From Candidatus Altiarchaeota archaeon (GTDB lineage: Archaea; Altiarchaeota; Altiarchaeia; IMC4; SCGC-AAA252-I15): DNA of 17,541 nucleotides. A program made the position numbers and the translations under genes. Under the pieces are notes generated by a model that worked only from the letters and a program-made list of their open reading frames with translations, was not told the DNA's origin and searched no databases. Where the stretch lies: positions 1 to 17,541 of the forward strand of contig JAZDIN010000010.1 in assembly GCA_043804895.1 (NCBI GenBank), read 5' to 3'. Below, piece by piece: positions 1-17,541 of this stretch; position 1 is the stretch's first letter; every line of letters begins with the position of its first letter.

Positions 1-1
1 A

Positions 2-250
2 TTTTATTGTGCTGCACCAGGATTTTGTGGGGTTAAGGTAGGGACTGAGGATAGTACGTGTACCTCAAACTTTGACTGTTTGGGTAGTTCCTCTGGCGGA
101 GGCTCCAGTAGTGGTGGTGCCTCAACGCATGGAGAATGCTACAATCCATACGCTTCATCCGTATGTGTGGCTGTGGATGGTGCGGGTACTGATGAATGTA
201 TCCCCCCAGATGATATACGGTGTCTGACTTATGGTGGCGGCACCGGCTGA
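2..250 (+). CDS. 3' end of a Cys-rich protein (partial, 5' end outside the window)
   Basis: Open frame 2 from the window edge: FYCAAPGFCGVKVGTEDSTCTSNFDCLGSSSGGGSSSGGASTHGECYNPYASSVCVAVDGAGTDECIPPDDIRCLTYGGGTG*, TGA at 248-250. Two 4-Cys units joined by an S/G linker. Not in the ORF track. Confidence 0.8.
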   Translation, partial: FYCAAPGFCGVKVGTEDSTCTSNFDCLGSSSGGGSSSGGASTHGECYNPYASSVCVAVDGAGTDECIPPDDIRCLTYGGGTG

Positions 251-321
251 TTTCTCCAGTCTAGTTTACATCACGTTCTGCACGAACTCATATCCTGGCT
301 TTCATGCTGCCGTGAACTCTC

Positions 322-410
322 TACTACACGCCCTATATTGACATGTAACTGGCTTTCCCGCAGTACCTCCCGTACTCAATGCCTCCTGTGGGGGTGGCGT
401 TCCAGGGTGA
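322..410 (+). repeat. Intermodule direct repeat, copy R1 (degenerate)
   Basis: TACTACACGCCCTATATTGACATGTAACTGGCTTTCCCGCAGTACCTCC matches the 5' half of the repeat consensus (CACACGCCYTGGTATGAAC..GT...TGGCTTTTCCTGCGGCGTCTCC). Confidence 0.55.
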
Positions 411-425
411 CGGCCTATTGTGAGG

Positions 426-749
426 TTATACTGCTACTCCCTCTCTGACTGCCTGCTGCACTATGCAGCGGGATTGTTTCTTCTCCATGAACTCTTCCGG
501 CGTGTACGGTAGCACGTCTATGTCCCTATCAGAATCCCAGAACCTCACAACCTCCTCTATCCTCCTATGCCATCTAACGTCCTTGAATTTCTTCGAGACT
601 AGTATCAGGTCGTAGTCGCTGTATGATTTCTCGGTGCCCTTGGCTCTGGAGCCGAATAGTATGGCCTCGTCGAGCGGGAAATTACTCCTCACTTTGGAGA
701 GGAATTCGGCTAGTTCATCCTTTAGTTGGTGATTTTTTTCTTTATCCAT
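426..749 (-). CDS. Minimal nucleotidyltransferase (MNT) domain protein, partner of the upstream HEPN gene
   Basis: 107 aa; LFGSRAKGTEKSYSDYDLILV = GSx10DxD motif; third Asp in IDVL; start overlaps the 3' end of the HEPN gene. Confidence 0.9.
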   Translation of the reverse strand: MDKEKNHQLKDELAEFLSKVRSNFPLDEAILFGSRAKGTEKSYSDYDLILVSKKFKDVRWHRRIEEVVRFWDSDRDIDVLPYTPEEFMEKKQSRCIVQQAVREGVAV

Positions 750-1070
750 TCTATGACCTCCTCTGCCCTTTGAAGCAGGTCTGAGACGTCCTCCTTACCG
801 TAAAGCTCGTATGGTGCTCCAATGGATGCGTCAGGGTATCTTGTGTCAATGAATTTTGGCGTTAGAGTCCTCAATTGAAAGGTAGGTCAGGGAGTGGGAC
901 TGCGGCACCAGATCCCTGTTTTCGAAGAGATAAAGGGCTTTAAGGCATTTCTCAACAGCCTGCTGGATGAGAAATGCCGCGTTACTGTATCTGCCCTTCT
1001 CGTGGAGTATTTTGGCTGATTCAAGGTCATATAAGCCCTGCTTAAGCCAGACTTCAACGTCCTTATCCAT
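722..1070 (-). pseudogene. HEPN domain protein (PF05168-like), frameshifted near 875-882
   Basis: ATG at 1070 with TATAAA 22 nt upstream. N-part: MDKDVEVWLKQGLYDLESAKIL...QQAVEKCLKAL...HSLTYL. C-part in another frame: LRTLTPKFIDTRYPDASIGAPYELY...EEVIEWIKKKITN*, TAA ending at 722. Span of 349 nt is not a multiple of 3. Confidence 0.85.
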
Positions 1071-1172
1071 CCTAAGACATTCAGCTTCCACATTTATATC
1101 CATGGTCTGAGCTTGAAGTCGCAATATTAGGCACGTGAATTTACTGCCATCTAAGGGGGGGGTTTCATCGCT

Positions 1173-1310
1173 TATGAAATCGTAGCCTGACTTTCCTGCA
1201 GAATCTCCTGATGTCTGGGTTCCTCAGAAGGTGGTGTTCCTCGCGGCTTGGCCTTGGGGGGGTTGTTCTCTGCTGGTGAACAATAGTGTTCATTGGTGGT
1301 GAACAAGTTT
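1173..1310 (+). repeat. Intermodule direct repeat, copy R2 (split by an insert of about 45 nt; tandem dyads intact)
   Basis: TATGAAATCGTAGCCTGACTTTCCTGCAGAATCTCCTGA (1173-1211), then GGGGGTTGTTCTCTGCTGGTGAACAATAGTGTTCATTGGTGGTGAACAAGTTT ending at 1310. Confidence 0.75.
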
Positions 1311-1315
1311 ATAAG
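1308..1315 (+). promoter_or_regulatory. Archaeal TATA box for the ATPase gene (likely leaderless)
   Basis: TTTATAAG ending 23 nt before ATG 1339. Confidence 0.6.
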
Positions 1316-1338
1316 CATGGCCGTCCCTATCACATAAC

Positions 1339-2559
1339 ATGATGCTTAAGGAGACCCTGCGGGGCGTCGTAACGTCTCAGGGGGAGGAGCTTAAGCTCTT
1401 CGACAAAGGCATAGGACGGGAAATATCCCCTCAAATACGGTTGGACACGCCCTTAGCCACGGTCTTGTCAGGCGTTAGAAGGTGCGGTAAGAGCACCCTA
1501 CTTCGGCAGCTTATGGGTAAGGTGGATGGCTTCTACTTCAACTTCGAAGACCCGAGGGTGGTGAAATTCGAGGTTGGGGACTTCCAGAAGCTGGATGAAG
1601 TATTCCATGAGGAATACGGGAGCAGAGACTACTACTTCTTTGATGAGGTACAGAACGTCCAGAAGTGGGAGCTTTTCGTCCGCGCGCTGCTTGACAAAAG
1701 AAAACATGTCACAATAACGGGCTCCAACGCCTCTCTCCTGAGCAGGGAACTGGGGTCACGGCTTACCGGACGCCATCTCAGGCGGGAGCTGTTCCCCTTC
1801 TCATACAAGGAGTTCCTCAAGCTGACTGGCAAGGAAGAGGGCATAAAATCCTTCCAGGAGTATATGACCAAAGGAGGCTTCCCAGAGTACCTGAAAATAG
1901 GCCGAGCCGAAGTGCTTCAAGAACTCCTCAACGACATACTGGTGAGGGACATAGCCGTAAGGCACAAGCTCAGGAACGTCAAAACAATAAGGGAGATGGC
2001 CATGTTTCTCCTCACAAACGTCGGTAAGGAATTCTCCTACACTTCCCTCAAGAAGACGTTCAGCCTAGGCTCAACCAACAGCGTAATATCCTTCGCATCC
2101 TACTTCGAAGACAGCTACCTGCTGTTCACCATAACCCGGTTCGACTACTCCCTGAAAAAACAACTCGTAAGCCCCAAGAAAGTCTACTCCATAGACAATG
2201 GCATGTCAAACACAAACTCCGCCTCCTTCTCGGAAGACAAAGGCAGGATGCTTGAGAACACAGTCTTCCTGAACCTCAGGAAAAAAGACGGGGACATATA
2301 CTACTTCAGGGAAAAAAACGAATGCGACTTCGTAATCAAGCAGGGGACGAAAATCACTGAGGCAATACAGGTATGTTACAACCTAGACGAAGATAACAAG
2401 GACAGGGAAATAAAAGGCCTGACTGAAGCATTGGACAAATTCAACCTAAAACAGGGCCTAATCCTAACATACGACCAGGAGGAGATTCTGAAAATAAGCG
2501 GGAAAACAATACACCTAAAACCAGTCTGGAAGTGGCTTCTGCACTCAACCAGTCCCTGA
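1339..2559 (+). CDS. AAA+ ATP-binding protein (AAA_14 + DUF4143, COG1373-like)
   Basis: 406 aa; Walker A GVRRCGKST, YFNFED, Walker B YFFDEVQ, ITGSNASLLS, LTGR, GGFPE, KKVYSIDNG, ENTVF and ECDFV..IQVC (PD-(D/E)xK-like C-terminus). Confidence 0.92.
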   Translation: MMLKETLRGVVTSQGEELKLFDKGIGREISPQIRLDTPLATVLSGVRRCGKSTLLRQLMGKVDGFYFNFEDPRVVKFEVGDFQKLDEVFHEEYGSRDYYFFDEVQNVQKWELFVRALLDKRKHVTITGSNASLLSRELGSRLTGRHLRRELFPFSYKEFLKLTGKEEGIKSFQEYMTKGGFPEYLKIGRAEVLQELLNDILVRDIAVRHKLRNVKTIREMAMFLLTNVGKEFSYTSLKKTFSLGSTNSVISFASYFEDSYLLFTITRFDYSLKKQLVSPKKVYSIDNGMSNTNSASFSEDKGRMLENTVFLNLRKKDGDIYYFREKNECDFVIKQGTKITEAIQVCYNLDEDNKDREIKGLTEALDKFNLKQGLILTYDQEEILKISGKTIHLKPVWKWLLHSTSP

Positions 2560-2593
2560 AGAAGCGACGATACTATCCCATAAACGTCCGATG

Positions 2594-2602
2594 TTTTATA
2601 TA
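2594..2602 (+). promoter_or_regulatory. TATA box for the Cys-rich gene at 2629
   Basis: TTTTATATA ending 26 nt before the ATG. Confidence 0.5.
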
Positions 2603-2628
2603 CCTAAGGGGCCCATATATTATGTGAT

Positions 2629-4029
2629 ATGGCCGTTGTTCGGGTGAAGAGTGTAGGTTACGGAACCAAAACACTGCTTCTATTCTCAGCCACACTCACA
2701 CTCCTCATAGGCTTAACAGCGCCGTTGACTGCGGCGGTTACAATTTGGCCGATGCAGGTTGAGGACTGTTCTCAGTGTGATTACAACAGTCATGCTGAAA
2801 TGGACTGTTATGAAGGGTGCTTTGAGCTTCTTGGCAGTTGCTGTTGTTGTGATGGTTATTGCGTGGATGGTGTGGTTACCCTAGGCCCGGACGGTCAACC
2901 CACTCAAGGACCGGCTACCTGTTGTCCTGGTAACTATTGTGGTGATAATACTGGCGGTTATACTCCTCCAGAAGGTAATCCTTTCTTTGTCTCTGAAGAT
3001 GCGTGCAAAGTCCATTGTGCGCAGAACTGGTCGTCCTGCGGTGATTTCGGCGACATAAGCGGTATCAATCCAATCACTGGCCAAAAGGACGACTTTATGT
3101 TGAATGGGACTAAAGCCAACAGTTTCTGTGATGACCCTGAGAACTGTGGCAAATCATGCAGTCCCCCGTGCGAGCCAGGCACTGGAAGTCCTTGTTGCTC
3201 TATGCTTTGTACCCTAATGGATGGAGTTGTCTGCCCTCCATGTCCCGGTACTTTTACGCCAAGCAGTGGCACTGACACTGACACCGCCACCTCCGAATCC
3301 TCTTCCCCCAGTTCCGATTCAGGTAGTTCCGACAGCACCAGCAGCGGCCACGGAACCGGCCCCGGCACTGGCACTGATTCCGGCACTGACTCTGGCTCCA
3401 GTTCAGGCACTGACACCACAAGCAGTGAGTCCTCCTCCACGAGCAGCAGCACAAGCGACTCCACCAGCAGCTCCACAAGCTCCTCCAGCAGCGGCGGCAC
3501 GGATTGCGTGTGCCAGAGCACCTGCCCGTCAGGTTTCGCTCCAAGGTGCATCCAACCCGGCCAACCCAACCCCACCGAACCAGGAGCCTACCAAAACGGC
3601 AAATGCGTCTGGACAACAGGCGGCACAGGCGCCACAACCACAACACTACCCGGCGGAGGCAACCCTGAAGGCGATGCCGCCTGTGCGACAGAGTATCCGG
3701 CGGATGATACTCTTCAGGCTGGTGTGTGTAAGGACCAGTACTCGGATTGTTCTAGCCTCTGTGATGGATTCCAGTGGCATGGTTCTAAGAACTGTGATGT
3801 GTATGCTACTGGTACAGAGGGTTGTTGCCAATGCCCAAAGCCTTTCGATTGTGCGACAGAGTATCCGGCGGATGATAACTGTAAGGCTGGTGTGTGTAAG
3901 GACCAGTACTCGGATTGTTCTAGTCTCTGTGGTGGGTTCCACTGGCATGGTGGCAAAAACTGTGACGTGAATATTCTTGGTACAGAGGGTTGTTGCATAT
4001 GCCCGCAACCACTGAAGGTATGCTCCTAG
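2629..4029 (+). CDS. Secreted Cys-rich modular protein with S/T/G linker and tandem 56-aa Cys repeats (C-terminus frameshifted; remnant runs to 4069)
   Basis: Basic N-terminus plus hydrophobic signal (KTLLLFSATLTLLIGLTAPLTAA), Cys-rich N-domain, long Ser/Thr/Gly linker, module CVC..CIQPGQP..KCV, TTTTLP linker, two CATEYP...CCxC repeats. Confidence 0.85.
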   Translation: MAVVRVKSVGYGTKTLLLFSATLTLLIGLTAPLTAAVTIWPMQVEDCSQCDYNSHAEMDCYEGCFELLGSCCCCDGYCVDGVVTLGPDGQPTQGPATCCPGNYCGDNTGGYTPPEGNPFFVSEDACKVHCAQNWSSCGDFGDISGINPITGQKDDFMLNGTKANSFCDDPENCGKSCSPPCEPGTGSPCCSMLCTLMDGVVCPPCPGTFTPSSGTDTDTATSESSSPSSDSGSSDSTSSGHGTGPGTGTDSGTDSGSSSGTDTTSSESSSTSSSTSDSTSSSTSSSSSGGTDCVCQSTCPSGFAPRCIQPGQPNPTEPGAYQNGKCVWTTGGTGATTTTLPGGGNPEGDAACATEYPADDTLQAGVCKDQYSDCSSLCDGFQWHGSKNCDVYATGTEGCCQCPKPFDCATEYPADDNCKAGVCKDQYSDCSSLCGGFHWHGGKNCDVNILGTEGCCICPQPLKVCS

Positions 4030-4069
4030 CATTGAGGGTTGTTGCCAATGCCCACAACCAGGACATTAA
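3682..4069 (+). repeat. 168-bp intragenic tandem repeat: two full units plus a truncated third
   Basis: Unit 1 (3682-3849) and unit 2 (3850-4017) both begin TGTGCGACAGAGTATCCGGCGGATGAT. 4018-4069 matches only the 3' part of the unit (YAPSIEGCCQCPQPGH*). Confidence 0.9.
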
Positions 4070-4146
4070 CCTAATCTACTATAAAATCTCTCCAGGAATA
4101 CCTCTCGCATTAATTCGTCCGTCTCAGCCTGCGTAACCGGGGCCTT

Positions 4147-4206
4147 CACCGTACGCCCGGTATGACCTTGTGTTTTTGACTCTCCTGTCAGCGTCTCCTG
4201 ACATCT
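4147..4206 (+). repeat. Intermodule direct repeat, copy R3 (5' half)
   Basis: CACCGTACGCCCGGTATGACCTTGTGTTTTTGACTCTCCTGTCAGCGTCTCCTGACATCT. Confidence 0.7.
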
Positions 4207-4375
4207 AATAGTCCCTGAAACAGGGAGAGGATTAGGCCGTGTGTGAATTAGTTGGGATTATAAGCGCATTTCCAATGATTAACTGCTATGGCGGAGGGGG
4301 GATATTTTCCCGGTGCTCGCGGTGGTTTTAAAGTCAACCCTGTGACAATAAGTTTAGGGATTGAAGGTGGATTCC

Positions 4376-5351
4376 ATGGGTGCGACTAAGGCGTTGGTTG
4401 TTTTTGACGGCAGGCAGATACGCAGGGTCTGGCATGATAACGGATGGTATTTTTCCGTTGTTGATGTAATAGGAGCCTTAACAGACAGTGTTGATTCGAA
4501 GGATTACTGGTACCGGCTGAAGACAAGGGAATTAGAATCAAGCGGAATCGAGTTATCGACACTTTGTCGACAACTGAAACTGCCATCGGCAGACGGTAAA
4601 AAATACCTAACAGACTGCGCCAACACGGAGTCCATGTTTAGGATTATCCAATCCATACCCTCCAAGAAGGCAGAACCTTTCAAGCGGTGGCTTGCTAGAG
4701 TCGGCTTTGAGCGTGTGCAGGAGATTGAGAATCCTGAACTGGCTCAGGACAGGGCTAAAGGGTATTATGAGTTGAAAGGATACCCGAAAGACTGGGTTGA
4801 CAAGCGGCTTAGGGGCATAGCCATACGGCAGGAGTTGACTGATGAGTGGGGGCAAAGGGGCGTAGACGACAAACAAGGCTACGCGATACTAACTAATGAG
4901 ATATCTCAGGCCACTTTCGACGTGCCGGTGAAAGAGCACAAGAGGCTTAAAGGATTGGACGCTGAAAACAGGAACCAGAACCTCAGGGACCATATGACTG
5001 ATTTGGAGCTTATATTCTCCATGTTAGGTGAAAAAGCCACCACAGAGATATAGCGAATGACATAAGTTGTTGAACTTTGGCTTGTTGGAAATCAGTCAAA
5101 TTTCCATGTCATTCGATATATTCGATAGCAAATGTACATTGTCAAAAGTTCAAATACATTTGCTATCGTCTATAACTCGGGCTAGGAACTCCAATGGATT
5201 CGGCGAATGCCTCCACTCATCAAGGGAAGGCGGGAAGATAGCGAAAAACGCTAGAGTGGAGCTTGAAAAGAAGACCGGCCGCAGAGTCGTAAGCCGAACC
5301 AATTATCTGGGACTGGCGGAACGGAAGAAGCTCAAAAAATATAGCAAATGA
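4376..5351 (+). pseudogene. BRO-N domain / phage antirepressor-like protein interrupted by an insertion
   Basis: FDGRQIRRVW..WYFSVVDVIGAL..YWYRLK..IIQSIPSKKAEPFKRWLARVG..NLRDHMTDLELIFSMLGEKATTEI, then after 124 extra nt TRARNSNGF..GGKIAKNAR.ELEKKTGRRVVSRTNYL. Removing 5051-5174 gives a continuous 283-aa ORF from ATG 4376. Confidence 0.88.
5051..5172. mobile_element. 122-bp MITE-like insertion with TA target duplication
   Basis: TA at 5049-5050 and 5173-5174; ends read TATAG...CTATA; AT-rich; internal inverted repeats at 5048-5063/5106-5121 (15/16) and 5123-5136/5155-5168 (14/14). Confidence 0.75.
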
Positions 5352-5407
5352 TGGAAGTTATTGGACATTCGTCAAATCCTAAATCTACCATCTACTGTCA
5401 TCTGTGT

Positions 5408-5514
5408 CATTCACACCCCTGGTATGAACCGGTGTTTTGGCTTTTCCTGCGGCGTCTCCGGGGGGTTGTTCACTGCCGGTGGATTATGGTGTCTGTTGGT
5501 GGCGGCTGCGTTTA
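5408..5514 (+). repeat. Intermodule direct repeat, copy R4 (full length)
   Basis: CACACCCCTGGTATGAACCGGTGTTTTGGCTTTTCCTGCGGCGTCTCCGGGGGGTTGTTCACTGCCGGTGG. The 3' tail aligns without gaps to R2 up to GTTTA, which overlaps the stop codon of the AbiEii gene. Confidence 0.85.
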
Positions 5515-6441
5515 GTCGGTTAGGATTTTGTTCGCTAGTTTGGTTAGGTATTTTGTCAGTTGTTTTGTGTGTTGTTCGAATTCTTTGTTCAGGGGTTTCA
5601 GGAGTATTTTCTCCTCTTCTCCGAGTTTGAAGGTTGGTGTGGCCGTGGTATTTTGCTGTAGGTTCTGCCTGTATTTCTCGTATTTGAGGATGAACCTGGT
5701 TTTGTCGAGGATCACTGCCTCCAAGTCTTCTGGTTTGACGCCTGTTTCTTTTTGTATCAGGTAGACGTCTATGAAGTCTCTTGCTTTAGTGCCTTTTCTG
5801 GTGAGGATGGCGCGGACTTTCTCGGCTAGTATCTCCCTCAGGTCGTAGGTTCTGACTTTAGGCCGGCTTAAGAGTTCTTTGGCAGCGTCTGGATACAGGT
5901 ACTTGAACTCCTTGACGTCTACGGCTTCGAGGTTGTTTCTAGCCTCCAATGTCTTGAACGGGTACTTGAATTTTTCGACGTAGTTGACTTGTATCTTGAT
6001 GAACTTCTTTGCTTTCAGTTCGACGGAATCGTACCATACCCTGAAGGTGGTGAATTTGTTTCCGCCGCCGAATTCCATGAAATCCCGGTCTTTTTTGTCG
6101 GCCTTGAATTCAAGCGTCAACTTGGCTGATATGGCTTCAAGCTTCTTAGCCAGCCCATTTACCTCCTCAGATAACTGCCGTCGTATCTGTTTTTCGGATT
6201 TTCCTTCGAATTCGTCCTGTCTGGCGTAGCTGAAGTCGAGGTCTTCGCTGAACCGGTAGTATCCGAGGTAACATTTTATGAGGCAGGTGCCGCCCTTAAA
6301 GACGTAATGTGTTCTGAAGTACTCGTCAGCCGTAATCTCCTTCAAGAGCAGGTGCAGGATTATATCCTTCTCGACGAGTGCCGGCTCCTTGACGCCTGTT
6401 TTCCCCGCAAGATAGTCGACGAGCTCTTTTGTAATCTTCAC
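5512..6441 (-). CDS. abiEii: AbiEii/AbiGii-family nucleotidyltransferase toxin (type IV TA)
   Basis: 309 aa; VEKD, FKGGTCLIKCYLGYYRFSEDLDF, EILAEKVRAILTR, KARDFIDVY; GTG start overlaps the upstream TGA (GTGA). Confidence 0.9.
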   Translation of the reverse strand: MKITKELVDYLAGKTGVKEPALVEKDIILHLLLKEITADEYFRTHYVFKGGTCLIKCYLGYYRFSEDLDFSYARQDEFEGKSEKQIRRQLSEEVNGLAKKLEAISAKLTLEFKADKKDRDFMEFGGGNKFTTFRVWYDSVELKAKKFIKIQVNYVEKFKYPFKTLEARNNLEAVDVKEFKYLYPDAAKELLSRPKVRTYDLREILAEKVRAILTRKGTKARDFIDVYLIQKETGVKPEDLEAVILDKTRFILKYEKYRQNLQQNTTATPTFKLGEEEKILLKPLNKEFEQHTKQLTKYLTKLANKILTD

Positions 6442-7067
6442 TTTATGCCCTCCAGGAATTTTTCCACCGATCTGGGGTATCTTCTCGCGTATGCTTCGAG
6501 CTTGCCCTCGGAGCAGTGTTCAAGTATGTCTGAGACCCGTCCAACAACTTCTGACTCGGTCAAACTGTTGTATCTGCTCAGGTATATCATGTCCAACACG
6601 GTCTTTTCTGGGTCCGAGTAGTTCAGCTTGTCCTTCACTATCCCAAAGCCGAAGAGCCTCTTCGAAACCCTGATGAATTTCACCTTATGCCCCAGTATCT
6701 CGAAAGCGTTGGGTCTGCCAATCGAATCGGATATGACGAATGTTGTCGTAAAGTACTCGTGCGTGAGGTTGTTGAGGGAGGCTGCCGTCTCAAGTCCATA
6801 ATACCAGTTTTCTACTTTCTTTAGGGTTAACGCCTTCTTTATCGCCTCCAGATGGTTCACGTCCAGTTTGTCGAGCTTACGCTCTTCAATGGATTTGACA
6901 TAAAATACTCCGCGCATAATCCGCAGAATGTATTTGTTCGCGTTCAAGTACCCTACGGCGGAAAGATACCTTATGTCTGCCTCATCAGACCATAATTTAA
7001 GCTCCTCCCGCGTAATGTATTTTCCGCCTGAGCGTTCGACCTTTTTGACCAATAAACTGTAACTCAT
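6438..7067 (-). CDS. AbiEi-like antitoxin / transcriptional regulator
   Basis: 209 aa; N-terminal wHTH-like region ending RIMRGVFYV, WYYGLETAASLNNLTHE, YSDPEKTVLDMIYL; translationally coupled to AbiEii. Confidence 0.8.
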   Translation of the reverse strand: MSYSLLVKKVERSGGKYITREELKLWSDEADIRYLSAVGYLNANKYILRIMRGVFYVKSIEERKLDKLDVNHLEAIKKALTLKKVENWYYGLETAASLNNLTHEYFTTTFVISDSIGRPNAFEILGHKVKFIRVSKRLFGFGIVKDKLNYSDPEKTVLDMIYLSRYNSLTESEVVGRVSDILEHCSEGKLEAYARRYPRSVEKFLEGIK

Positions 7068-7068
7068 C

Positions 7069-7109
7069 TTAAACCATAAGTATATATAATTTATACATAT
7101 ATGATTTAA
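7069..7109. promoter_or_regulatory. Inverted repeat over the TATA box of the first AbiE operon (candidate autoregulatory operator)
   Basis: TTAAACCATA...TATGATTTAA arms (9/10) with inner GTATA/TATAC; minus-strand TATAAA at 7090-7095, 22 nt from the ATG. Confidence 0.55.
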
Positions 7110-7117
7110 AATACAAA

Positions 7118-7216
7118 TATATAACTGTTAATCCTGGCTCTGCACAACCCCCATCACCCACAGATACCCCATCCTCTGCCGGTGAACAAAGGTATTCACT
7201 GTCAATGAACACCTTT
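7118..7216 (+). repeat. Intermodule direct repeat, copy R5 (dyad half conserved)
   Basis: TATAACTGTTAATCCTGGCT, then CTCTGCCGGTGAACAAAGGTATTCACTGTCAATGAACACCTTT (7174-7216). Confidence 0.7.
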
Positions 7217-7330
7217 CATAGGTTTTGTGCGTATCAGCTGGTGGGGGTGGTTTTATTATGGATTGTGCTGCCTGAGAGGTGGTTTCTGCTGTCTCAGCCG
7301 TTATTTTTATCCCCCTTCCTATCTTAACTG

Positions 7331-7714
7331 ATGAAAGAGGAATTGAGCCGGCTTGTTGGTAGGGCTCGGAGGGATTCTTCTGTCCTGGCGGTGATGGTTT
7401 TCGGGAGCTTCGCGAGGGGTGAGCGGTACCGTGACTTGGATGTGTGCATGGTCCTTAAGCCTAAGCGTTACTCCGACCTCCAGTTGTCTGAGAAGAGGCT
7501 TGAGTACCTCTCTCACGTCGGCACCCCTGTTGACTTGCAAGTCTTCCAGCAGCTTCCATTGTATGTGAGGGAGCGGGTTTTCGGCGAAGGCAAGCCCCTT
7601 TACGTGAGGGACGAGTCCGCCCTCTTCGACTTGGCTGTTGATACTCACAGGTCATTCGAGGACTACAAGCCCATATATGAGGAGTATCTGCGAGGTGTCG
7701 CCGATGGCGGATGA
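7331..7714 (+). CDS. mntA: MntA-like minimal nucleotidyltransferase antitoxin
   Basis: 127 aa; VMVFGSFARGERYRDLDVC, VDLQVFQQLPLYV, EGKPLY; overlaps the downstream HEPN gene. Confidence 0.85.
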   Translation: MKEELSRLVGRARRDSSVLAVMVFGSFARGERYRDLDVCMVLKPKRYSDLQLSEKRLEYLSHVGTPVDLQVFQQLPLYVRERVFGEGKPLYVRDESALFDLAVDTHRSFEDYKPIYEEYLRGVADGG

Positions 7715-8156
7715 GAAGAGAATCCTCTCCAAGATAAGCGAACTGGACGGTTACCTGCGGGAGCTTGAGGAAGTCAGGCCTTCCGGTTTCAGGGAGTATG
7801 AGTCTTCTGTGGAGAAGAGGAGGAGTTGTGAGAGGCTTCTCCAGATTAGCATCGAATGTGTGGTGGACGTCTGCTCTCTTCTTGTGAAAGGATTGTCTGC
7901 CGGACTCCCCTCTGATGAAGACGACCTTTTCGTGAAACTGGGCGGGAAGAGGGTCTTCTCCAAGAGCCTTGTCGGTAAACTCAGGCAGATGAAGTCTTTC
8001 AGGAACATACTCGTCCACAGGTACGGTACCGTGGACGACCGTCTCGTATTCAAGTTCATCGAGGAGGACTCCAGCGACTTAAGGGAGTTCATAAGCCAGA
8101 CACTCAAGGCCTTGAAGAATCTGAAGAAAATCGGAGGCCGTGGGCGCAGACGATAG
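7704..8156 (+). CDS. hepT: HepT-like (DUF86) HEPN RNase toxin
   Basis: ATG 7704 preceded by GAGGTG; ERLLQISIECVVD; intact Rx4HxY motif RNILVHRY followed by GTVD; 150 aa. Confidence 0.88.
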   Translation: MADEKRILSKISELDGYLRELEEVRPSGFREYESSVEKRRSCERLLQISIECVVDVCSLLVKGLSAGLPSDEDDLFVKLGGKRVFSKSLVGKLRQMKSFRNILVHRYGTVDDRLVFKFIEEDSSDLREFISQTLKALKNLKKIGGRGRRR

Positions 8157-8194
8157 CTAGATTATACGGGGTTTTCCCCCTATTCTTTCGCTTT

Positions 8195-8262
8195 CACCAC
8201 ACGCCTGGCATAAACACGTATTCTGGCTTTCCTTACAGTGTCTTTATGGTTGTTCTCTCTGG
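8195..8262 (+). repeat. Intermodule direct repeat, copy R6
   Basis: CACCACACGCCTGGCATAAACACGTATTCTGGCTTTCCTTACAGTGTCTTTATGGTTGTTCTCTCTGG. Confidence 0.7.
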
Positions 8263-8327
8263 GGGCTTGCGTCCTTTTGTTTGTCTTGGAAAGTGAGAAT
8301 ATTCTCGTTTTTTGATACCGTGGTTTT

Positions 8328-9230
8328 TTAGGTTCGTATGACTGGTTTTACCTCGTATAATAATCCTTCAATCTCTCTTGTTAAGTTGTGTCTTCTGGCA
8401 GTTCTTCTGAGGTACTGGATGTCTGTTTCGTCTTTGTGCAGTAGCAGAAGCCATTTGCTGTGCTCCCATGCTTTTTCGGTGCCGTCGAGGAACATATGCA
8501 CTATCACATCCTCCATTGGGGCGTAGTCCCCTCCCTCATCTTTTATTCTGTCTTTTCCGGAGTATGCGTAGACTGTTGTTTCAGGCGGGATGAGGTGTAT
8601 CCCATAGTGGTCGAGTGCGCTCTCTGACGTGTACTTCCACCTGAGTTTTTTCTCGAGGATTTTGTTTTTCAGTTTTTCTATGTTGCCTGCCTTTAGTATA
8701 TACTCGTTGTCGCCTGACCAGGCGACCCATCCGTCAGACTCCTCTAAGTCGAATGGTGGGGTGATGGTTTTTGCCTCAAGGAGTGGTTTGAGTTCCCGGT
8801 ATGTTGGGCTGTCGCGGTTTATTGCGTAGGTGCCTGCGCCCATGTTGACGGCCAATCCCATGGATTGGAATACCCCCAGTTTAAGGTAGACTGTCCGCCT
8901 GGTCTTTTGTATCTCCTCAGCTATCTCCTCCACCCTCTTCTGCCCCTCGTTCAACGATTTTAGGATTTTGAACTCCGTCTCTTGGAGTATGTTTTCAAGC
9001 GCCAAATTAGGCTGTCTCCGAAGTAGCATCCGTATTGCTGTAGCATGGGGAGTCTGGCCTAGGCTGTAGTTCCATCCCTGCTTTTTAGCAAGCCCTAACT
9101 TATGCAGTTTGCTTAGGATTGTTGAGGCTCTGCCTATGCTCAGGTGCAGTTCAGCCGCTATTTCTGAGGTCTTTTTTTGGCTGTTGGCTAGGCTCTTCAA
9201 TGCTAGCACATCAGTTTTGTTTAATTTCAT
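8328..9230 (-). CDS. Tandem winged-HTH protein with C-terminal domain; probable regulator/antitoxin partner of the adjacent NTase
   Basis: 300 aa; two wHTH-like segments (TSEIAAELHLSIGRASTILSKLHKLGL; VEEIAEEIQKTRRTVYLKLGVFQSMGL); C-terminal TSESALDHYGIHL, MEDVIVH; TTTATTAA 22 nt upstream. Confidence 0.8.
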   Translation of the reverse strand: MKLNKTDVLALKSLANSQKKTSEIAAELHLSIGRASTILSKLHKLGLAKKQGWNYSLGQTPHATAIRMLLRRQPNLALENILQETEFKILKSLNEGQKRVEEIAEEIQKTRRTVYLKLGVFQSMGLAVNMGAGTYAINRDSPTYRELKPLLEAKTITPPFDLEESDGWVAWSGDNEYILKAGNIEKLKNKILEKKLRWKYTSESALDHYGIHLIPPETTVYAYSGKDRIKDEGGDYAPMEDVIVHMFLDGTEKAWEHSKWLLLLHKDETDIQYLRRTARRHNLTREIEGLLYEVKPVIRT

Positions 9231-9278
9231 ATATGTAATATGACATTATAAGTTAATAAATAATGCTCTTTTATTTCA

Positions 9279-9950
9279 CTACTGAAATAATCTGCTAATT
9301 TTTGTAGTGAAAGATGCTGGCGGAACAATACTGTGCGTCGTCCTAAGCGACGCAATAGACTGCCTGAAAAAAGCCCAATCCTCACGCTCAAGCTTCGAAG
9401 CCTGCCTAACAAACTCGTCAGCAACCACACCCCAATCAAAATCAGACCTAAGAATCAACCGCATATCATCTATGTCCCTGGGCCTGCCAGCCATCGCCTT
9501 AAACAGGAACACATCCTCTATTGAACAGATGCGGTTATCGAGTTTCCCGAGAACCTTATAGGGGCGGCTTCTCGAAACCATCTCGTCTGAGAACCTTATC
9601 TTTCCGCAAATCTGCTTCAGGAACAGGTCGATTCTCATCCTCGGCGGAATCTTCTCATGGATGCTACCTTCAGCGCGCTCCTCGAATATGCCGAAAGCAT
9701 TCAAGCCCAGATATTCCGGCTGGTTGACAATCTCAACCTCCATGAAATTTGAGTCAAACAATGCCATCCTGAAGGTTTCGACTTCGGCATCTGTCAGAAG
9801 GACCAAGTCGGTATCCTTCGTCGTCGACTTCAACCTGAGCGCGCACATGGCGTTCCCGCCTATGTGATACGCGGTTACGGGCTTCTTCAAATTGGCACCA
9901 ACCCTGCCAAGAACCGCCTCAATATACTCCAACCCATGCTGGTGGTCCAC
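9279..9950 (-). CDS. DUF6036-like nucleotidyltransferase (Pol-beta superfamily)
   Basis: YHIGGNAM..KSTTKDTDLV, RIDLF, EDVFLFKAMAGRPRDIDD. Start placed at GTG 9950 because GTTAATAA lies 22 nt upstream and the longer ORF-track extension overlaps AbiEii and repeat R7. Confidence 0.78.
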   Translation of the reverse strand: MDHQHGLEYIEAVLGRVGANLKKPVTAYHIGGNAMCALRLKSTTKDTDLVLLTDAEVETFRMALFDSNFMEVEIVNQPEYLGLNAFGIFEERAEGSIHEKIPPRMRIDLFLKQICGKIRFSDEMVSRSRPYKVLGKLDNRICSIEDVFLFKAMAGRPRDIDDMRLILRSDFDWGVVADEFVRQASKLEREDWAFFRQSIASLRTTHSIVPPASFTTKISRLFQ

Positions 9951-9990
9951 GAATACAAATTGAGAACAGCGATTATTAACAAAAAATGGC

Positions 9991-10053
9991 CGCCTGCATG
10001 GACATGCAATCAACTTTTCTTGCGGCGTCTTTTGGGGGTTGTTCGCTGCTGGT
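9991..10053 (+). repeat. Intermodule direct repeat, copy R7
   Basis: CGCCTGCATGGACATGCAATCAACTTTTCTTGCGGCGTCTTTTGGGGGTTGTTCGCTGCTGGT, ending directly at the stop codon of AbiEii (10054). Confidence 0.8.
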
Positions 10054-10854
10054 TTAGTTGTCTTTTTGTGGGTATTCGTTGAGGTATTTTTCTGCGTATT
10101 CGCGGGCTTTGAGTATGAGTTCGATGTCGTCTTCTTTGAAGAGGAAGGGCCTGACTTGTTGGGCGAGCCTGTTAAGTTCCTTCTCGTCAAGGCCCCTAAA
10201 GTGTCTTAGGATGCGTTCTTTGGGGTTTTGGATGTTGTTCGCCTCCAGTATGTCCTCGTCGAACGGGAATCTCCTCCTTAGCATGTGTAGTATGTCGTAG
10301 ATGTCGCGGCCTCTCTTCCTGCTTAGCATGGCGCAGAGTTTTTCGGTTATCAGCCCCGGGTTTGACATGAGGATTGCGGTGAAGTTATATCCGAATTTGC
10401 TCGTCACATGGGATTCGGTTTCTGTCGGCCATGGTGGGTTGTTGACTTCCACTTTGACTGTCATTGTCGCGCCTCTATCGTCTGTGATGCCATACTGGCT
10501 CATGATTTCCGTGAATTCGATGTTCGCTGTCATGAGCGTGTCTCTCCTCTTCTTCTGTGCGGTCGTGTTGAATCCTTCAAGCGAGAGCGCCTTCCCTACC
10601 TTCCCCAGTAAGTCCTCGAAGTCCTTCTCGCTCATCCTTTTAGTGTTGAAATCCAAGTCCTCTGAGAACCTTGGGAGGTTGTGGTAGAACCTGAGCGCCG
10701 TTCCACCGCAAAAGAACATCACCCTGCCGTACTCGCTCCGGTATATCGTGTCAAGTATTACTGTCTGCAGGTACTCCCTGATAATCGCCCTCTTCTTACC
10801 CGGCGGCAAGCCTATGATTTTCGCCTCCTCCATGAGGTATTCCATGTTCAGCAT
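10054..10854 (-). CDS. abiEii: AbiEii-family nucleotidyltransferase toxin (type IV TA)
   Basis: REYLQ, FCGGTALRFYHNLPRFSEDLDF, VKVEV, EKLCAMLSRKRGRDIYD. ATG 10854 overlaps the AbiEi 3' end with GAGGGGGTG upstream; GTG 10863 is an alternative start. Confidence 0.9.
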   Translation of the reverse strand: MLNMEYLMEEAKIIGLPPGKKRAIIREYLQTVILDTIYRSEYGRVMFFCGGTALRFYHNLPRFSEDLDFNTKRMSEKDFEDLLGKVGKALSLEGFNTTAQKKRRDTLMTANIEFTEIMSQYGITDDRGATMTVKVEVNNPPWPTETESHVTSKFGYNFTAILMSNPGLITEKLCAMLSRKRGRDIYDILHMLRRRFPFDEDILEANNIQNPKERILRHFRGLDEKELNRLAQQVRPFLFKEDDIELILKAREYAEKYLNEYPQKDN

Positions 10855-11471
10855 TCTATCCACCCCCTCAGTCTTTCCACCTCTAGGGTGGTTTTTTTGT
10901 TGAATAGTCCGGCGTATGCCCTCATCTTTTTCCAGTCGACTTTACCTACCGCTCTCCTGTCGAACCTCTCCTCGTCGTAGTCTATTGTGCCCTCATTTCT
11001 CAGCTTGTAGTATATGTAGTCGATGAGTGTTTTTTCCCTATCAGCCATCATGACCTTCTCCCCCTCATACCTTAGGATGTGGTATCCACTGTATGCTGTT
11101 TCCTTGCAACTTCGGTATGTGAAGAGGCCGTGTCTGTTCCTGTACTCGCGTGTCGGTTTTGTCGTTACTGAGGTGACTTGCGCCGTCACCTCCGGGATGA
11201 TGTTGTAGTATGAGAGCGCTGTTTCGAGTGAGACGTATGACGGCGTGTACAGTCTGTTTGCAATGTACAGGTCTGGGGTTTCCTTCCCTGAGGTGGCGTC
11301 CTCGTATATGCCACGCCTGAGTTTTCCAATGTATCCTCTACTCTGCCAGTTTGTGAGGTTGTTCTTCAGGGTTTTTCTGTTCGCGTCCGGGTATAGGTTT
11401 AGGATGTCTGCTAGGCTGAATATGGTTTGTTTGTTCTTCCTCAGTTTATTAGCCAGCCCAATGTATTTCAT
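10848..11471 (-). CDS. abiEi: AbiEi-family antitoxin
   Basis: 207 aa; KLRRGIY, IANRLYTPSYVSLETALSYYNIIPE, TSVTT, MADREKTLIDYIY. Confidence 0.88.
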   Translation of the reverse strand: MKYIGLANKLRKNKQTIFSLADILNLYPDANRKTLKNNLTNWQSRGYIGKLRRGIYEDATSGKETPDLYIANRLYTPSYVSLETALSYYNIIPEVTAQVTSVTTKPTREYRNRHGLFTYRSCKETAYSGYHILRYEGEKVMMADREKTLIDYIYYKLRNEGTIDYDEERFDRRAVGKVDWKKMRAYAGLFNKKTTLEVERLRGWIEC

Positions 11472-11473
11472 TT

Positions 11474-11493
11474 AGTCCTAATATAATGGGACT
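11474..11493. promoter_or_regulatory. Imperfect palindrome just upstream of abiEi (candidate operator)
   Basis: AGTCCTAATATAATGGGACT, 16/20 self-complementary. Confidence 0.5.
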
Positions 11494-11510
11494 TTAAGGA
11501 ATAAAAACGC

Positions 11511-11607
11511 ATATACTCCATATTAACCTGTCTTGGCTTTTCCTGCGGCGTCTCATTGGTTGTTCAGTGCAGGTGAACAAATGTGTTCATTGGTATGGAC
11601 AAGTTTA
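11511..11607 (+). repeat. Intermodule direct repeat, copy R8 (full length)
   Basis: TATTAACCTGTCTTGGCTTTTCCTGCGGCGTCTCATTGGTTGTTCAGTGCAGGTGAACAAATGTGTTCATTGGTATGGACAAGTTTA; TTGGCTTTTCCTGCGGCGTCTC is identical to R4. Confidence 0.88.
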
Positions 11608-11611
11608 TTGG

Positions 11612-11679
11612 AAATTGTATGCCGTCGACCGACAATTTTTGCATAAAATTGTATGGTGTCAACCGACAGTTTTCGCATT
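11612..11679. repeat. Two tandem 34-bp imperfectly palindromic units
   Basis: AAATTGTATGCCGTCGACCGACAATTTTTGCATA / AAATTGTATGGTGTCAACCGACAGTTTTCGCATT, 28/34 identical. Confidence 0.8.
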
Positions 11680-11710: not shown

Positions 11711-12754
11711 CTACACCACACCTGGTATAAATCTATATTTGACTTTCTTGCAGTATCTTCTGTAGTCGGGGTCTCTTATTAGGTGACGTTCTTCGGTGAC
11801 GGCCCTCAGGAAGTATATCACTGACCAGAATGTCATGCCTGCGATTGCGGGTAGGTTGATGACCGGTATTATCGTCAGCCACCAGGCGAGGTTCTTTGAA
11901 ATATAAGCTGGATGTCTTATGTGGGCGTAGGGGCCTGTTGAGACGATTCCCCTGTTGGTGAGGTTGCTGGATTTCGTCCCCAATGCTAGTGTCGCCCACA
12001 GGTAAATCCAGAAGAGAAAGAGGGCGGCTGCCCTTGCGATGAGCGTCACCGTTGGGCTCCAGAATTGGACGAAATCGTTCGCATACCATGGAACGTACCT
12101 GCCGGCTAGTCCGTTGAACGGCGGATAACACACCAGCGCCACAACCCACCCGATGAGCGTCGGCTCCACAGACCTGACCTTGCTTTTGAGGAACTCGGCC
12201 TCGAACAAGTACCCGAAGCTGAAGTACAGGGTGTCTATGAGTAGGAAGAAGCTTAACCCAAATGGGAATATGATGTTGTTGAACGCGCCGGTGGTGAGGA
12301 AGTCGCCGGCTGACTCCACTCTCCCAAGTTGGTTGGCGACGTCATGGTAGTTCCCGAAGAGGAAGTTGAGCATAATCGGGATGTAAAAAAACTTCACCAG
12401 GGCGAATAGGATGGACGTCCTCTCCCTGTCCGTCAAAGACGGAGCCCTAACCTTAACGTCCCCAGGGAATCTCCTAACGTAATCCACTACTCCTGAGGTA
12501 ATCCTCCACAAGGCCTTCACTATCCTCAGCCCATGGCCTACACCCACCCTCCCATACGGGTAGAAGAGAGTGGCTGCGAGGCCGACTACTGTGTAAGCTA
12601 CCGCGAAAAAGTATATGGTCGCCAGCGTCTCCTCCCTGATGAACGTCTGATAGTAGCCGACGTTCGTGTAAACCCACAACACAACCCAGATGAACACAAG
12701 ATTACAAACATAATTCAACAAAGCAACATCACGACCAGACTCCCCCGAGGCCAT
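11711..12754 (-). CDS. Multi-pass membrane protein with isoprenylcysteine carboxylmethyltransferase (ICMT/PEMT)-family domain
   Basis: 347 aa with many hydrophobic helices; IVSTGPYAHIRHPAY, RAVTEERHL, YRRYCKKVKYRFIPG; TTATAA 24 nt upstream. Confidence 0.85.
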   Translation of the reverse strand: MASGESGRDVALLNYVCNLVFIWVVLWVYTNVGYYQTFIREETLATIYFFAVAYTVVGLAATLFYPYGRVGVGHGLRIVKALWRITSGVVDYVRRFPGDVKVRAPSLTDRERTSILFALVKFFYIPIMLNFLFGNYHDVANQLGRVESAGDFLTTGAFNNIIFPFGLSFFLLIDTLYFSFGYLFEAEFLKSKVRSVEPTLIGWVVALVCYPPFNGLAGRYVPWYANDFVQFWSPTVTLIARAAALFLFWIYLWATLALGTKSSNLTNRGIVSTGPYAHIRHPAYISKNLAWWLTIIPVINLPAIAGMTFWSVIYFLRAVTEERHLIRDPDYRRYCKKVKYRFIPGVV

Positions 12755-16780: not shown

Positions 16781-17541
16781 ATGGCTGGTAAGTCTGCGTT
16801 GAAGGCGTTAGGGTATGGTACCCCCAGCCTCATCATAGTGTCAGCCATACTAATACTGCTCATATCGGGGTCTGGTGGTCAGACTTATCCGGATGCTGAG
16901 AGTTGTATGGAGCAATGCTTTACACAAGAGGGTGCCTTATCGGATGCTGACTGCCTTGAAGTTTGTGTTGAGCTTGTGGATAATGCATGTTGTTGTGTCG
17001 AGAGTAAGTGCATTATGGTCTCTCAGGGAAGTAATATCTCTGAGGGTGGTATCCCAGAGCAGGAATGGTTTTGTTGCCCTACCATATTATGTGCACAACC
17101 TGGAGAAGACGGCACGTGTGATCCTCTCCCCTGTCCGCAGGATTGGTCAACCTGCGAGGATGAGCAGTTTAGGACAGAAGAATCATATAGTGCATATTGT
17201 AGCGTTGATGTGGATAGGGATGGGGTTCCGGACAACTGTTGTGAAACTCCACCTGATTGCCCGAGTTGCAGCCCCCCGTGTGACCCCCCTGGGATTGAAG
17301 TTTACGACCCCACCCGACCTGATGACCCTATGAACGGGTGCGAATGTGTCAGTCGAGAAACTAGAATGTGCGACCCCTGCCCTGACATTGGCATGCATAT
17401 GAACATCTCTAGTTCCTCCCCTACTTCCGGCACTACCAGCTCTGAAAGCGAGTCATCAAGTTCCAGCAGCTCATCACAGGACGGTGGCTTAGGCACCGGT
17501 ACTATCATCACCAATACTGGCACTGGAACGGCAACCAGCGA
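16781..17541 (+). CDS. Secreted Cys-rich protein, paralog of the 2629 gene (partial, runs off the window)
   Basis: Open frame from ATG 16781: MAGKSALKALGYGTPSLIIVSAILILLISGSGGQ..DCLEVCVELVDNACCC..CCP..CPQDWSTCED..DVDRDGVPDNCC..CSPPCDPP..CDPCP, then an S/T/G linker. Not in the ORF track. Confidence 0.88.
   Translation, partial: MAGKSALKALGYGTPSLIIVSAILILLISGSGGQTYPDAESCMEQCFTQEGALSDADCLEVCVELVDNACCCVESKCIMVSQGSNISEGGIPEQEWFCCPTILCAQPGEDGTCDPLPCPQDWSTCEDEQFRTEESYSAYCSVDVDRDGVPDNCCETPPDCPSCSPPCDPPGIEVYDPTRPDDPMNGCECVSRETRMCDPCPDIGMHMNISSSSPTSGTTSSESESSSSSSSSQDGGLGTGTIITNTGTGTATS

Follow-up and report, generated by a model that had tools for sequence, protein, structure and literature searches.

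Copies of one gene's 3' end separate toxin-antitoxin and candidate defence units in an Altiarchaeota archaeon

In archaea, mobile elements are documented to integrate into the 3'-distal parts of protein-coding genes and to supply the stop codon themselves, and tandem integration at one site is likewise documented (PMC6563490). Loss of the integrase after integration has also been documented (PMC8371274). In tycheposon islands, as outlined in the preprint describing them, successive integrations leave partial copies of the target, and newcomers push older inserts outward (bioRxiv 10.1101/2020.12.28.424599). Archaeal integrons are portrayed as mostly clusters of attC sites lacking integron-integrases (CALINs), which carry many toxin-antitoxin and defence genes (Ghaly et al. 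2022, PMC9668308). The locus described here shares traits with each of these systems. It occupies much of a 17,541-bp contig (C10) of a Candidatus Altiarchaeota archaeon, which was analysed over its whole length and is referred to below as the window, and it consists of at least seven small units (0.15-3 kb, with one or two genes each) arranged over about 11.6 kb beside a gene for an ICMT/PEMT-like membrane protein and separated by copies of that gene's 3' end. With a probability of roughly 60%, the locus is an additive defence island built by serial, likely recombinase-mediated integration at the 3' end of the ICMT/PEMT-like gene.

The genome under study (G000) is a bin of 1.58 Mb in 71 contigs with a completeness of 88.68%. 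It was compared within a set of 61 genomes of the phylum, G000 included; of the 60 others, 20 belong to the same family and 4 to the same genus. The window offers a concrete view of defence-island assembly in a little-studied, uncultured archaeal phylum, in which the 3' end of one protein-coding gene would have served at least nine times as a landing site and would have kept a datable scar each time. No publication linking Altiarchaeota with such arrays was found, and supplementary tables of the cited papers might list comparable cases.

The repeats as copies of a gene end

The original prediction described eight degenerate copies of a single 60-100-bp motif at the boundaries between gene modules. 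A single consensus proved misleading, as the motif consists of two unrelated halves, termed A and B here, which are separate elements joined at two positions. Half A corresponds, in reverse complement, to the final 50-105 nt of the ICMT/PEMT-like gene. The domain assignment of the encoded protein is marginal: PF04140 (ICMT) scores 25.0 bits against a cut-off of 24 and PF04191 scores 23.1 bits against a cut-off of 25, the Pfam domain is confined to the C-terminal part, and the N-terminal 230 residues are without assignment. The gene and the A copies are as follows:

11711-12754, minus strand: intact open reading frame (ORF) for a 347-aa membrane protein with a C-terminal ICMT/PEMT-like domain (Pfam ICMT)
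11711-11809: source of A, the true 3' end of the ICMT-like gene (about 100 nt); presumed attB and ninth A copy on the contig
320-420, plus strand: A copy R1, a pseudo 3' end of about 100 nt without B (A profile E 1.9e-19; gene end alone E 1.5e-4)
1166-1256, plus strand: A copy R2, about 90 nt (gene-end query E 1.6e-4; tblastn E 6.2e-7)
4145-4223, plus strand: A copy R3, without B (A profile E 6.6e-13)
5407-5510, plus strand: A copy R4 (5407-5468) joined to a decayed B (from 5466)
8194-8290, plus strand: A copy R6 (8194-8248) with a decayed B
9990-10080, plus strand: A copy R7 (9990-10041) with a decayed B over the AbiEii stop codon
11512-11610, plus strand: A copy R8 (11512-11558) with an intact B (11561-11602) and a TATA-like box to its right
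Contig C34, 2795-2867, minus strand: tenth A copy (gene-end query E 2.1e-4)

Seven of the eight predicted copies (322, 1173, 4147, 5408, 8195, 9991, and 11511) carry A; the one at 7118 has B only, at 7160-7212, and two copies had been missed, namely the true gene end (11711-11809) and the copy on C34 (2795-2867, minus strand). The predicted common orientation was borne out, since all nine contig A copies lie on the plus strand, and so was the absence of copies from the interior of toxin-antitoxin pairs: apart from the real gene end, the A copies are intergenic.

The reverse complements of five of the eight contig copies (R1, R2, R3, R4, and R6) translate as the C-terminus of the gene product followed by a stop codon. 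The last 32 residues of the protein match R2 in frame (tblastn; 26 codons, 58% identical, then a stop codon; E 6.2e-7), and the last 120 nt of the gene, searched alone against the whole genome, retrieve R1, R2, and the C34 copy (E 1.5e-4, 1.6e-4, and 2.1e-4), the next match having an E value of 2.2. An A-only profile gave ten matches in the whole genome at E <= 4.9e-6, nine on C10 (all on the plus strand) and one on C34, with the next match at E 0.22; this profile was made from the copies themselves, so its ten matches hold by construction. A profile built from four copies (R4, R6, R7, and R8) recovered its four sources and further matched 1237-1301 (E 2.4e-5), 324-360 (0.032), C34:2815-2861 (0.034), and, most weakly, 11717-11762 (0.095) and 4146-4198 (0.26); nothing else in the whole genome fell below E 0.14. 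The copies are thus confined to C10 and C34 in the profile scans, and the scatter over the genome in random orientation that the original prediction had named as counter-evidence was not seen. Mechanical repeat finding recovered the repeat families at the same positions. Recurrence is limited to terminal pieces of at most about 105 nt and never extends to gene bodies; the direct repeats copy the 3' end of their target gene, and the target gene is kept intact.

Integron attC sites are built from R''/L''...L'/R' boxes, the R' box having the consensus GTTRRRY, and pdif modules have 28-bp XerC/D-type sites of alternating orientation at their borders. A canonical integron cassette array (CALIN) or a set of Xer/pdif modules would account for repeats at the boundaries and for cargo rich in toxin-antitoxin and defence genes, yet either is highly improbable here. 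As predicted, the sites are not canonical attC: GTTRRRY is missing from all nine repeats on either strand, and no RYYYAAC...GTTRRRY pair occurs inside any repeat. The window repeats have no relevant Rfam match at E <= 1 (a single chance match to a long noncoding RNA was returned), and a six-frame search with PF00589 of the 88.68%-complete genome, in which C10 ends inside the array, found neither an IntI nor a Xer homologue. In addition, A is plainly a gene end, all nine A copies are direct repeats, and B is present at some boundaries only and occurs as a single copy beside cargo operons in 4 of the 60 other genomes. Since A is the 3' end of the adjacent ICMT-like gene, the arrangement is to be read as serial accretion at one att site, an established route of island formation which the original prediction had listed as an alternative, and not as the free-standing capture platform with its own type of site that it had put forward.

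Independently acquired units and a palindromic promoter-like module

The units between the A copies, including a partial one at the contig start, carry the following genes:

2-250, plus strand: C-terminal part of a Cys-rich secreted-type ORF, cut by the contig start; it ends a further unit
426-1124, minus strand: HEPN (846-1124) and MNT nucleotidyltransferase (426-749) unit (Pfam; the MNT gene matches PADLOC PDC-S09)
1339-4029, plus strand: AAA_14/DUF4143 ATPase (1339-2559) and Cys-rich secreted-type protein (2629-4029, 466 aa) (Pfam; PADLOC PDC-S01, E 1.9e-115)
4361-5351, plus strand: BRO-N protein (4361-5053) and 94-aa ORF (5067-5351) (Pfam; PADLOC PDC-S13, E 4.8e-98)
5512-7067, minus strand: AbiEii (5512-6441) and AbiEi (6438-7067) unit (Pfam; PADLOC)
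7331-8156, plus strand: MNT (7331-7714) and HepT (7638-8156) unit (Pfam)
8328-9950, minus strand: protein with two winged helix-turn-helix (wHTH) domains (8328-9230, 300 aa) and DUF2204/DUF6036-like nucleotidyltransferase (9279 to about 9950, its start set by comparison with the homologue in genome G017)
10054-11471, minus strand: second AbiEii (10054-10863) and AbiEi (10848-11471) unit (Pfam; PADLOC)

In both AbiE units, AbiEi adjoins AbiEii, as in AbiE type IV toxin-antitoxin systems. Pfam E values for AbiEii are 1.5e-30 and 1.3e-24 and PADLOC E values for AbiEi are 8.1e-52 and 5.7e-46; the AbiEii gene at 5512-6441, the sole one scanned with PADLOC, gave an AbiEii E value of 8e-76.

Recurring cargo is far apart at the protein level: the two AbiEii proteins are 28% identical, the two MNT proteins 22%, and the two ATPases (one in the window, one on C34) 35%. 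These genes are therefore not duplicates, and the repeats delimit independently acquired units. The prediction that repeats separate the units stands to that extent and fails at one boundary, where no A copy lies between the AbiE and MNT-HepT units. Local tandem duplication of the gene end together with cargo, followed by divergence, had also been considered; it would explain why the copies share one orientation and one locus and why AbiE and ATPase-plus-Cys-rich units each occur twice. It is largely refuted, as the recurring cargo shows 22-35% protein identity against roughly 60-88% DNA identity for the repeats, the cargo families differ between units, and two units have closer counterparts in other genera (77-82% DNA identity) than in their local paralogues.

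At the DNA level, the AbiE unit (5536-7132) matches contig C145 of genome G019 with 82% identity along about 1.6 kb, and the B-ATPase unit (1277-2489) matches contig C63 of G010 with 77% along 1.2 kb; part of the BRO unit (4303-4744) is 73% identical to contig C10 of G014. A core control, a 4.5-kb region compared in the same genomes, reached 65-67% in segments of about 0.5-1 kb and at most 76% in stretches of about 200 nt. Judged by this foreign-like similarity, the units appear to have been acquired horizontally.

Half B is a 42-bp double palindrome, TGTTCA-N7-TGAACA twice with 4 nt between the two, which abuts a TATA-like GTTTATA box. It is not derived from the gene, as profiles containing B match the ICMT-like gene over the A part only. 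Besides the copies listed above, the following B sites and contexts, and one feature next to B, were recorded:

1264-1315, plus strand: B copy of R2, intact palindrome (1264-1305, 1 mismatch) and TATA-like box, about 30 nt before the ATPase ATG
7160-7212, minus strand: B copy R5, three half-sites upstream of AbiEi (6438-7067), without A
11612-11679, plus strand: a pair of tandem 34-nt repeats (82% identity), each containing an inverted repeat
Genome G019: B precedes AbiEi-AbiEii
Genome G014: B precedes AbiEi-AbiEii
Genome G017: B precedes a nucleotidyltransferase-wHTH operon homologous to window 8328-9950 and lies 55 nt after a geranylgeranyl-reductase-like gene
Genome G010: B precedes an AAA_14/DUF4143 ATPase gene and lies 75 nt after nucS

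On the contig, B is intact at two of the nine A copies, decayed at R4, R6, and R7, and missing from R1, R3, and the gene end. The copy at R8 (11561-11602) is intact with 3 mismatches to the pattern, and the decayed B at the 9991 copy reaches into the final codons of AbiEii. The tandem repeats at 11612-11679, which are the sole content between the intact B at 11561-11602 and the ICMT-like stop codon, could be a terminator, binding sites, or a small RNA. The B core pattern has 4 matches in the window against 0.01 expected, a number that none of 200 shuffles reached. Among the 61 phylum genomes, the 42-bp pattern with at most 3 mismatches was found twice in G000 and once in each of 4 of the 60 others, all of them from the same family (4 of 20), and reversed-pattern controls gave no match. 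In viral contigs, a search with the three-half-site pattern returned one match, which is without the TATA arrangement and within chance expectation.

In all four related genomes, the palindrome is separated from the first cargo gene by the TATA-like box, and the B at 7160-7212 occupies the same position as B in G019, upstream of the orthologous AbiEi gene. Since the box is placed in this way in every case, B is read as a putative promoter/operator module of the cargo, and the prediction that units bring their own promoters is upheld for several of them in so far as these carry the promoter-like B/TATA module. The abiE promoter of S. agalactiae is described as containing paired inverted repeats that serve as the AbiEi operator (PMC7319586). 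B resembles that operator in its place at the AbiEi-AbiEii promoter position in G019, G014, and the window (7160-7212); it differs in that it also heads nucleotidyltransferase-wHTH genes (G017) and AAA_14 ATPase genes (G010 and window 1264-1305) and is thus not AbiEi-specific. A role as specific AbiEi operator was accordingly dropped, since B also precedes these other operons. An identity as a dif-like Xer site was rejected as well, because, with 3 mismatches allowed, 56 of the 60 other genomes are without B, and where B occurs it always adjoins cargo promoters.

A different role for B would follow from a dedicated, integron-like cassette system, in which units without a recombinase are moved in trans at A/B sites and B is the recognised site or boundary. 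This is a possible but rather unlikely explanation. It would suit the presence of at least seven units in a row without a recombinase gene or fragment. In both cross-genus comparisons, the homology begins at B (at 1277, inside the B of R2, against G010, and at the B of R5 against G019), and B heads three unrelated operon types across five genomes. The B of R2, moreover, folds as DNA into a strand-biased hairpin with G-T pairs (-10.1 kcal/mol, z -4.44, none of 200 shuffles as good); other folds have z values of -2.13 (B of R8), -0.88 (B of R4), -0.97 (R5), -1.32 (whole R2), and -0.70 (whole R8). A further favourable case is a clean 1.4-kb unit in G010, which contains B and a single ATPase gene and lies between direct repeats of 41-47 nt (80% identical) formed by the final nucS codons; the nucS gene of G000 has one end only and is directly followed by another gene. 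Against a cassette system stand the failure to find any recombinase in the genome, the absence or decay of B at most junctions (it is intact at two of the nine contig A copies), the operator-like position of B, beside a TATA-like box at the head of an operon, in all four related genomes, and a divergence of the A copies too great for current recombination. There is a minor chance that Altiarchaeota possess non-integron cassettes, short, recombinase-less, and carrying defence genes, each headed by the double palindrome and TATA-like box, which would be inserted by an enzyme acting in trans at the 3' ends of different host genes (the ICMT-like gene in G000, nucS in G010), stack there, and cross genera. 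Were this true, the palindrome would be both a promoter and a recombination or boundary signal. The recurrence of units in other genera at the ends of other genes, together with the shared palindromic module, raises the question of whether archaea have cassette-type exchange outside integrons.

A related arrangement occurs in G019 on contig C145 (locus L036), where a 191-nt direct repeat (1898-2088 and 3815-4005, 72% identical) represents the 5' part of a SAM-methyltransferase-like ORF. Between its two copies lies an AAA_14/DUF4143 ATPase unit that adjoins the AbiE unit, the boundaries being copies of a gene start. Given the G010 and G019 cases, the stacking of small units between partial copies of neighbouring genes is not unique to C10.

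Serial integration at the gene end and what weighs on it

Serial integration could have proceeded as follows. Circular DNA would integrate in a Campbell-type manner, most likely by means of a recombinase, at a single att site within the last 50-105 nt of the ICMT/PEMT-like gene. Each element would bring its own version of the gene's 3' end, and recombination inside it would give the gene a new end, while the previous end, now fused to an element arm, would be pushed away from the gene along with all earlier inserts. The expected outcome is a row of pseudo 3' ends (A) in the same orientation between inserts, with the youngest insert adjoining the gene. What is left of the elements would be the recombinase-less units of 0.15-3 kb with toxin-antitoxin, Abi, or candidate defence genes. 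These units may have arrived without an integrase and been helped in trans, or they may be the addictive remnants of larger elements that persisted after integrase loss. In one element family, represented by R4, R6, R7, and R8, B would have lain beside the att site; the order of the junction on the plus strand, which is A with its stop-codon side first, then B, then cargo, is the one expected if attP was an A sequence flanked by B.

The relationships among the copies bear on this scheme. R4, R6, R7, and R8 share one A/B junction, and R4, R7, and R8 are nearly identical in the gene-internal part of A, where they have a common 17-nt block with at most one mismatch; their stop-proximal parts differ. 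R8, which lies nearest the gene, shares 84% identity with R4 and 69% with the present gene end, which is itself closest to distant copies (86% to the C34 copy and 82% to R2). That R8 is closest to R4 and not to the present gene end, together with the shared junction, argues against duplication in situ and for a copy of attP borne by an element. Serial integration is further supported by the independence and foreign-like similarity of the units and by the B-ATPase unit that G010 holds between nucS-end repeats, against the single nucS end of G000.

An unoccupied site exists in G015, a genome of the same family that holds the closest orthologue of the ICMT-like gene (64% identity over a C-terminal segment and 40% over the N-terminal one). 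The orthologue has a single gene end, followed by a tRNA-Val gene, and no repeats; a 43% identical metagenome relative is likewise repeat-free. Searches of genome and metagenome contigs with the ICMT-like protein returned distant relatives only (41-43%), which were free of repeats where tested. A covariance model of A plus B (sequence only) gave no convincing match in the 60 related genomes, the two marginal ones having E values of 0.0056 and 0.0073, and the exact A/B-junction pattern was found in no stretch of the metagenome or viral contigs. The G015 orthologue lies between genes like those of contig C33 and tRNA-Val, whereas in G000, C33 joins C47 directly at that tRNA gene; synteny did not locate the distal flank of the array.

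Two observations concern this tRNA. The terminal 140 nt or so of C33 match the C47 end exactly in reverse complement, by which the contigs join at the tRNA-Val gene, and a 21-nt copy of the 5' part of tRNA-Val lies about 120 nt upstream of the tRNA. In genome G006, a comparable pair of tRNA 5' fragments, spaced by 121 nt, is found close to an integrase (L050, 8065-8220).

Several findings weigh against serial integration as outlined above. The junction of B with A lies either about 60 or about 100 nt from the stop codon, and the same ATPase cargo is bounded by ICMT ends in G000 and by nucS ends in G010; together, these differences require either that cargo was shuffled between vehicles with different attP or that another mechanism was at work. 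The A copies are about 60-88% alike over 45-100 nt, and no exact block of 10 nt or more common to all of them, as would be expected of a crossover core, was found, which makes present-day recombination between them doubtful. All four same-genus genomes lack both the repeat and a close orthologue of the gene. Between R8 and the gene end, the unit comprises only about 155 nt (B and the two 34-nt tandem repeats), too little for a plausible mobile circle, and deletion must therefore have reshaped units; further signs of deletion are a 77-nt BRO scrap on C34, the lack of B at R1 and R3, and the missing A copy between the AbiE and MNT-HepT units. Lastly, profiles for tyrosine recombinases (PF00589), SSV-type integrases (PF16795), and serine recombinases (PF00239) found nothing in six frames of the 88.68%-complete genome, including the window and C34, and no integrase fragment was found in about 11.6 kb with at least seven units. 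The original prediction had proposed looking for a tyrosine recombinase next to the array; with PF00589, none was detected there or elsewhere in the genome. PF00589 is present in 10 of the 20 family relatives. Six tyrosine recombinase neighbourhoods from five of these relatives contain no homologue of the window cargo and no long direct repeat fit for an att site.

The same geometry, with partial gene ends of 50-105 nt flanking the inserts, is predicted by single-crossover homologous recombination of small circles that carry the ICMT-like 3' end (for example, after imprecise excision), with no site-specific recombinase involved. Such a route would be in keeping with the lack of a detectable recombinase and with the relatives' repeats, which derive from the adjacent gene and vary widely in length (the nucS 3' end in G010 and the 191-nt methyltransferase 5' part in G019). 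It is nonetheless improbable, as an identity of 60-88% over 45-100 nt makes a poor substrate unless much of the divergence came later, and as the fixed A/B junction in R4, R6, R7, and R8 points to a defined attP and not to ad hoc fragments. Serial, recombinase-mediated integration is preferred here. Should there be no cassette route, the locus would still illustrate clearly how inserts accumulate and then decay until only addictive or defensive genes are left.

Contig C10 ends inside the array. On contig C34, positions 1-3947 comprise, in reversed order, a HicB-HicA pair, an A copy, a 77-nt BRO fragment, an ATPase gene, and a Cys-rich gene that runs off the contig. The BRO fragment, which lies beside the A copy, is 89.6% identical to window 4672-4748. 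The ATPase is of the PDC-S01 type and 35% identical to that of the window, so that the pairing of ATPase and Cys-rich genes occurs twice. The partial Cys-rich ORF of C34 (433 aa) aligns to residues 17-402 of the 466-aa protein encoded at 2629-4029, and the window ORF at 2-250 aligns weakly to residues 402-465 of the same protein. C34 thus probably precedes the window in the array; the contig ends are without sequence overlap, for which reason the join is only a hypothesis.

To the right of the array, past 12754, the window contains surface and glycosidase-like genes, and the right-flank gene is without an orthologue in the same genus; no tRNA gene was found in the window by a tRNA search. The whole contig is accessory. 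The gene for the Cys-rich protein contains an internal 155-nt duplication (3682-4004, 86% identical), and a gene for a 753-aa surface protein contains a Thr/Gly-rich tandem array with a 9-nt period (16238-16390). Both are typical low-complexity features of surface-protein genes and a likely cause of assembly breaks. Elsewhere in G000, on contig C45, the end (50-58 nt) of an ORF at 21030-21392 (plus strand) recurs in the same orientation near 16884, 19183, and 20567 with 82-94% identity; C45:16884-21392 may be another repeat-bounded array, as suggested by a crude and noisy genome-wide screen for duplicated gene ends.

Comparison with described systems

Among described systems, archaeal integrated elements that target gene 3' ends and additive islands of the tycheposon type come nearest to the array. 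Mobilizable elements of streptococci known as cis-mobilizable elements (CIMEs) are bounded by att sites, lack recombination genes, are found in tandem beside the 3' end of a target gene, and obtain their integrase in trans. They differ from the present array in being bacterial, in usually numbering one or two and not ten, and in having a known helper, an integrative and conjugative element; no helper was found here.

CALINs, as characterised in the account cited above, resemble the array in being a row of small units split by one recurring site, with toxin-antitoxin and defence cargo and no integrase on the contig. The array differs in that R'/R'' boxes are absent, the conserved half of the repeat is the 3' end of a gene, and the cassettes face both ways and carry promoter-like modules.

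The tycheposons of Prochlorococcus (Hackl et al., bioRxiv 10.1101/2020.12.28.424599) are similar in the displacement of older elements, the scattered partial copies of the target, and the adaptive or defence cargo. According to that preprint, they target tRNA genes, carry tyrosine recombinases, and leave fragmented integrases among their remnants, whereas the target here is protein-coding and no integrase, whole or fragmentary, was found.

The archaeal elements that target 3' ends (Krupovic et al. 2019, PMC6563490; PMC8371274) have in common with the array that the end of a protein-coding gene recurs as direct repeats while the gene stays intact, and that successive inserts occupy one site; some of these elements are without an integrase after integration. 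In the present locus, by contrast, at least 9-10 partial gene ends stand in a row, the units measure 0.15-3 kb, no integrase or integrase fragment was found, the repeats, at 50-105 nt, are long and have diverged, and the host belongs to the Altiarchaeota. As a variant of such integration, the array is unusual in the number of its stacked scars, its uniformly tiny recombinase-less units, and the palindromic promoter-like module that these share.

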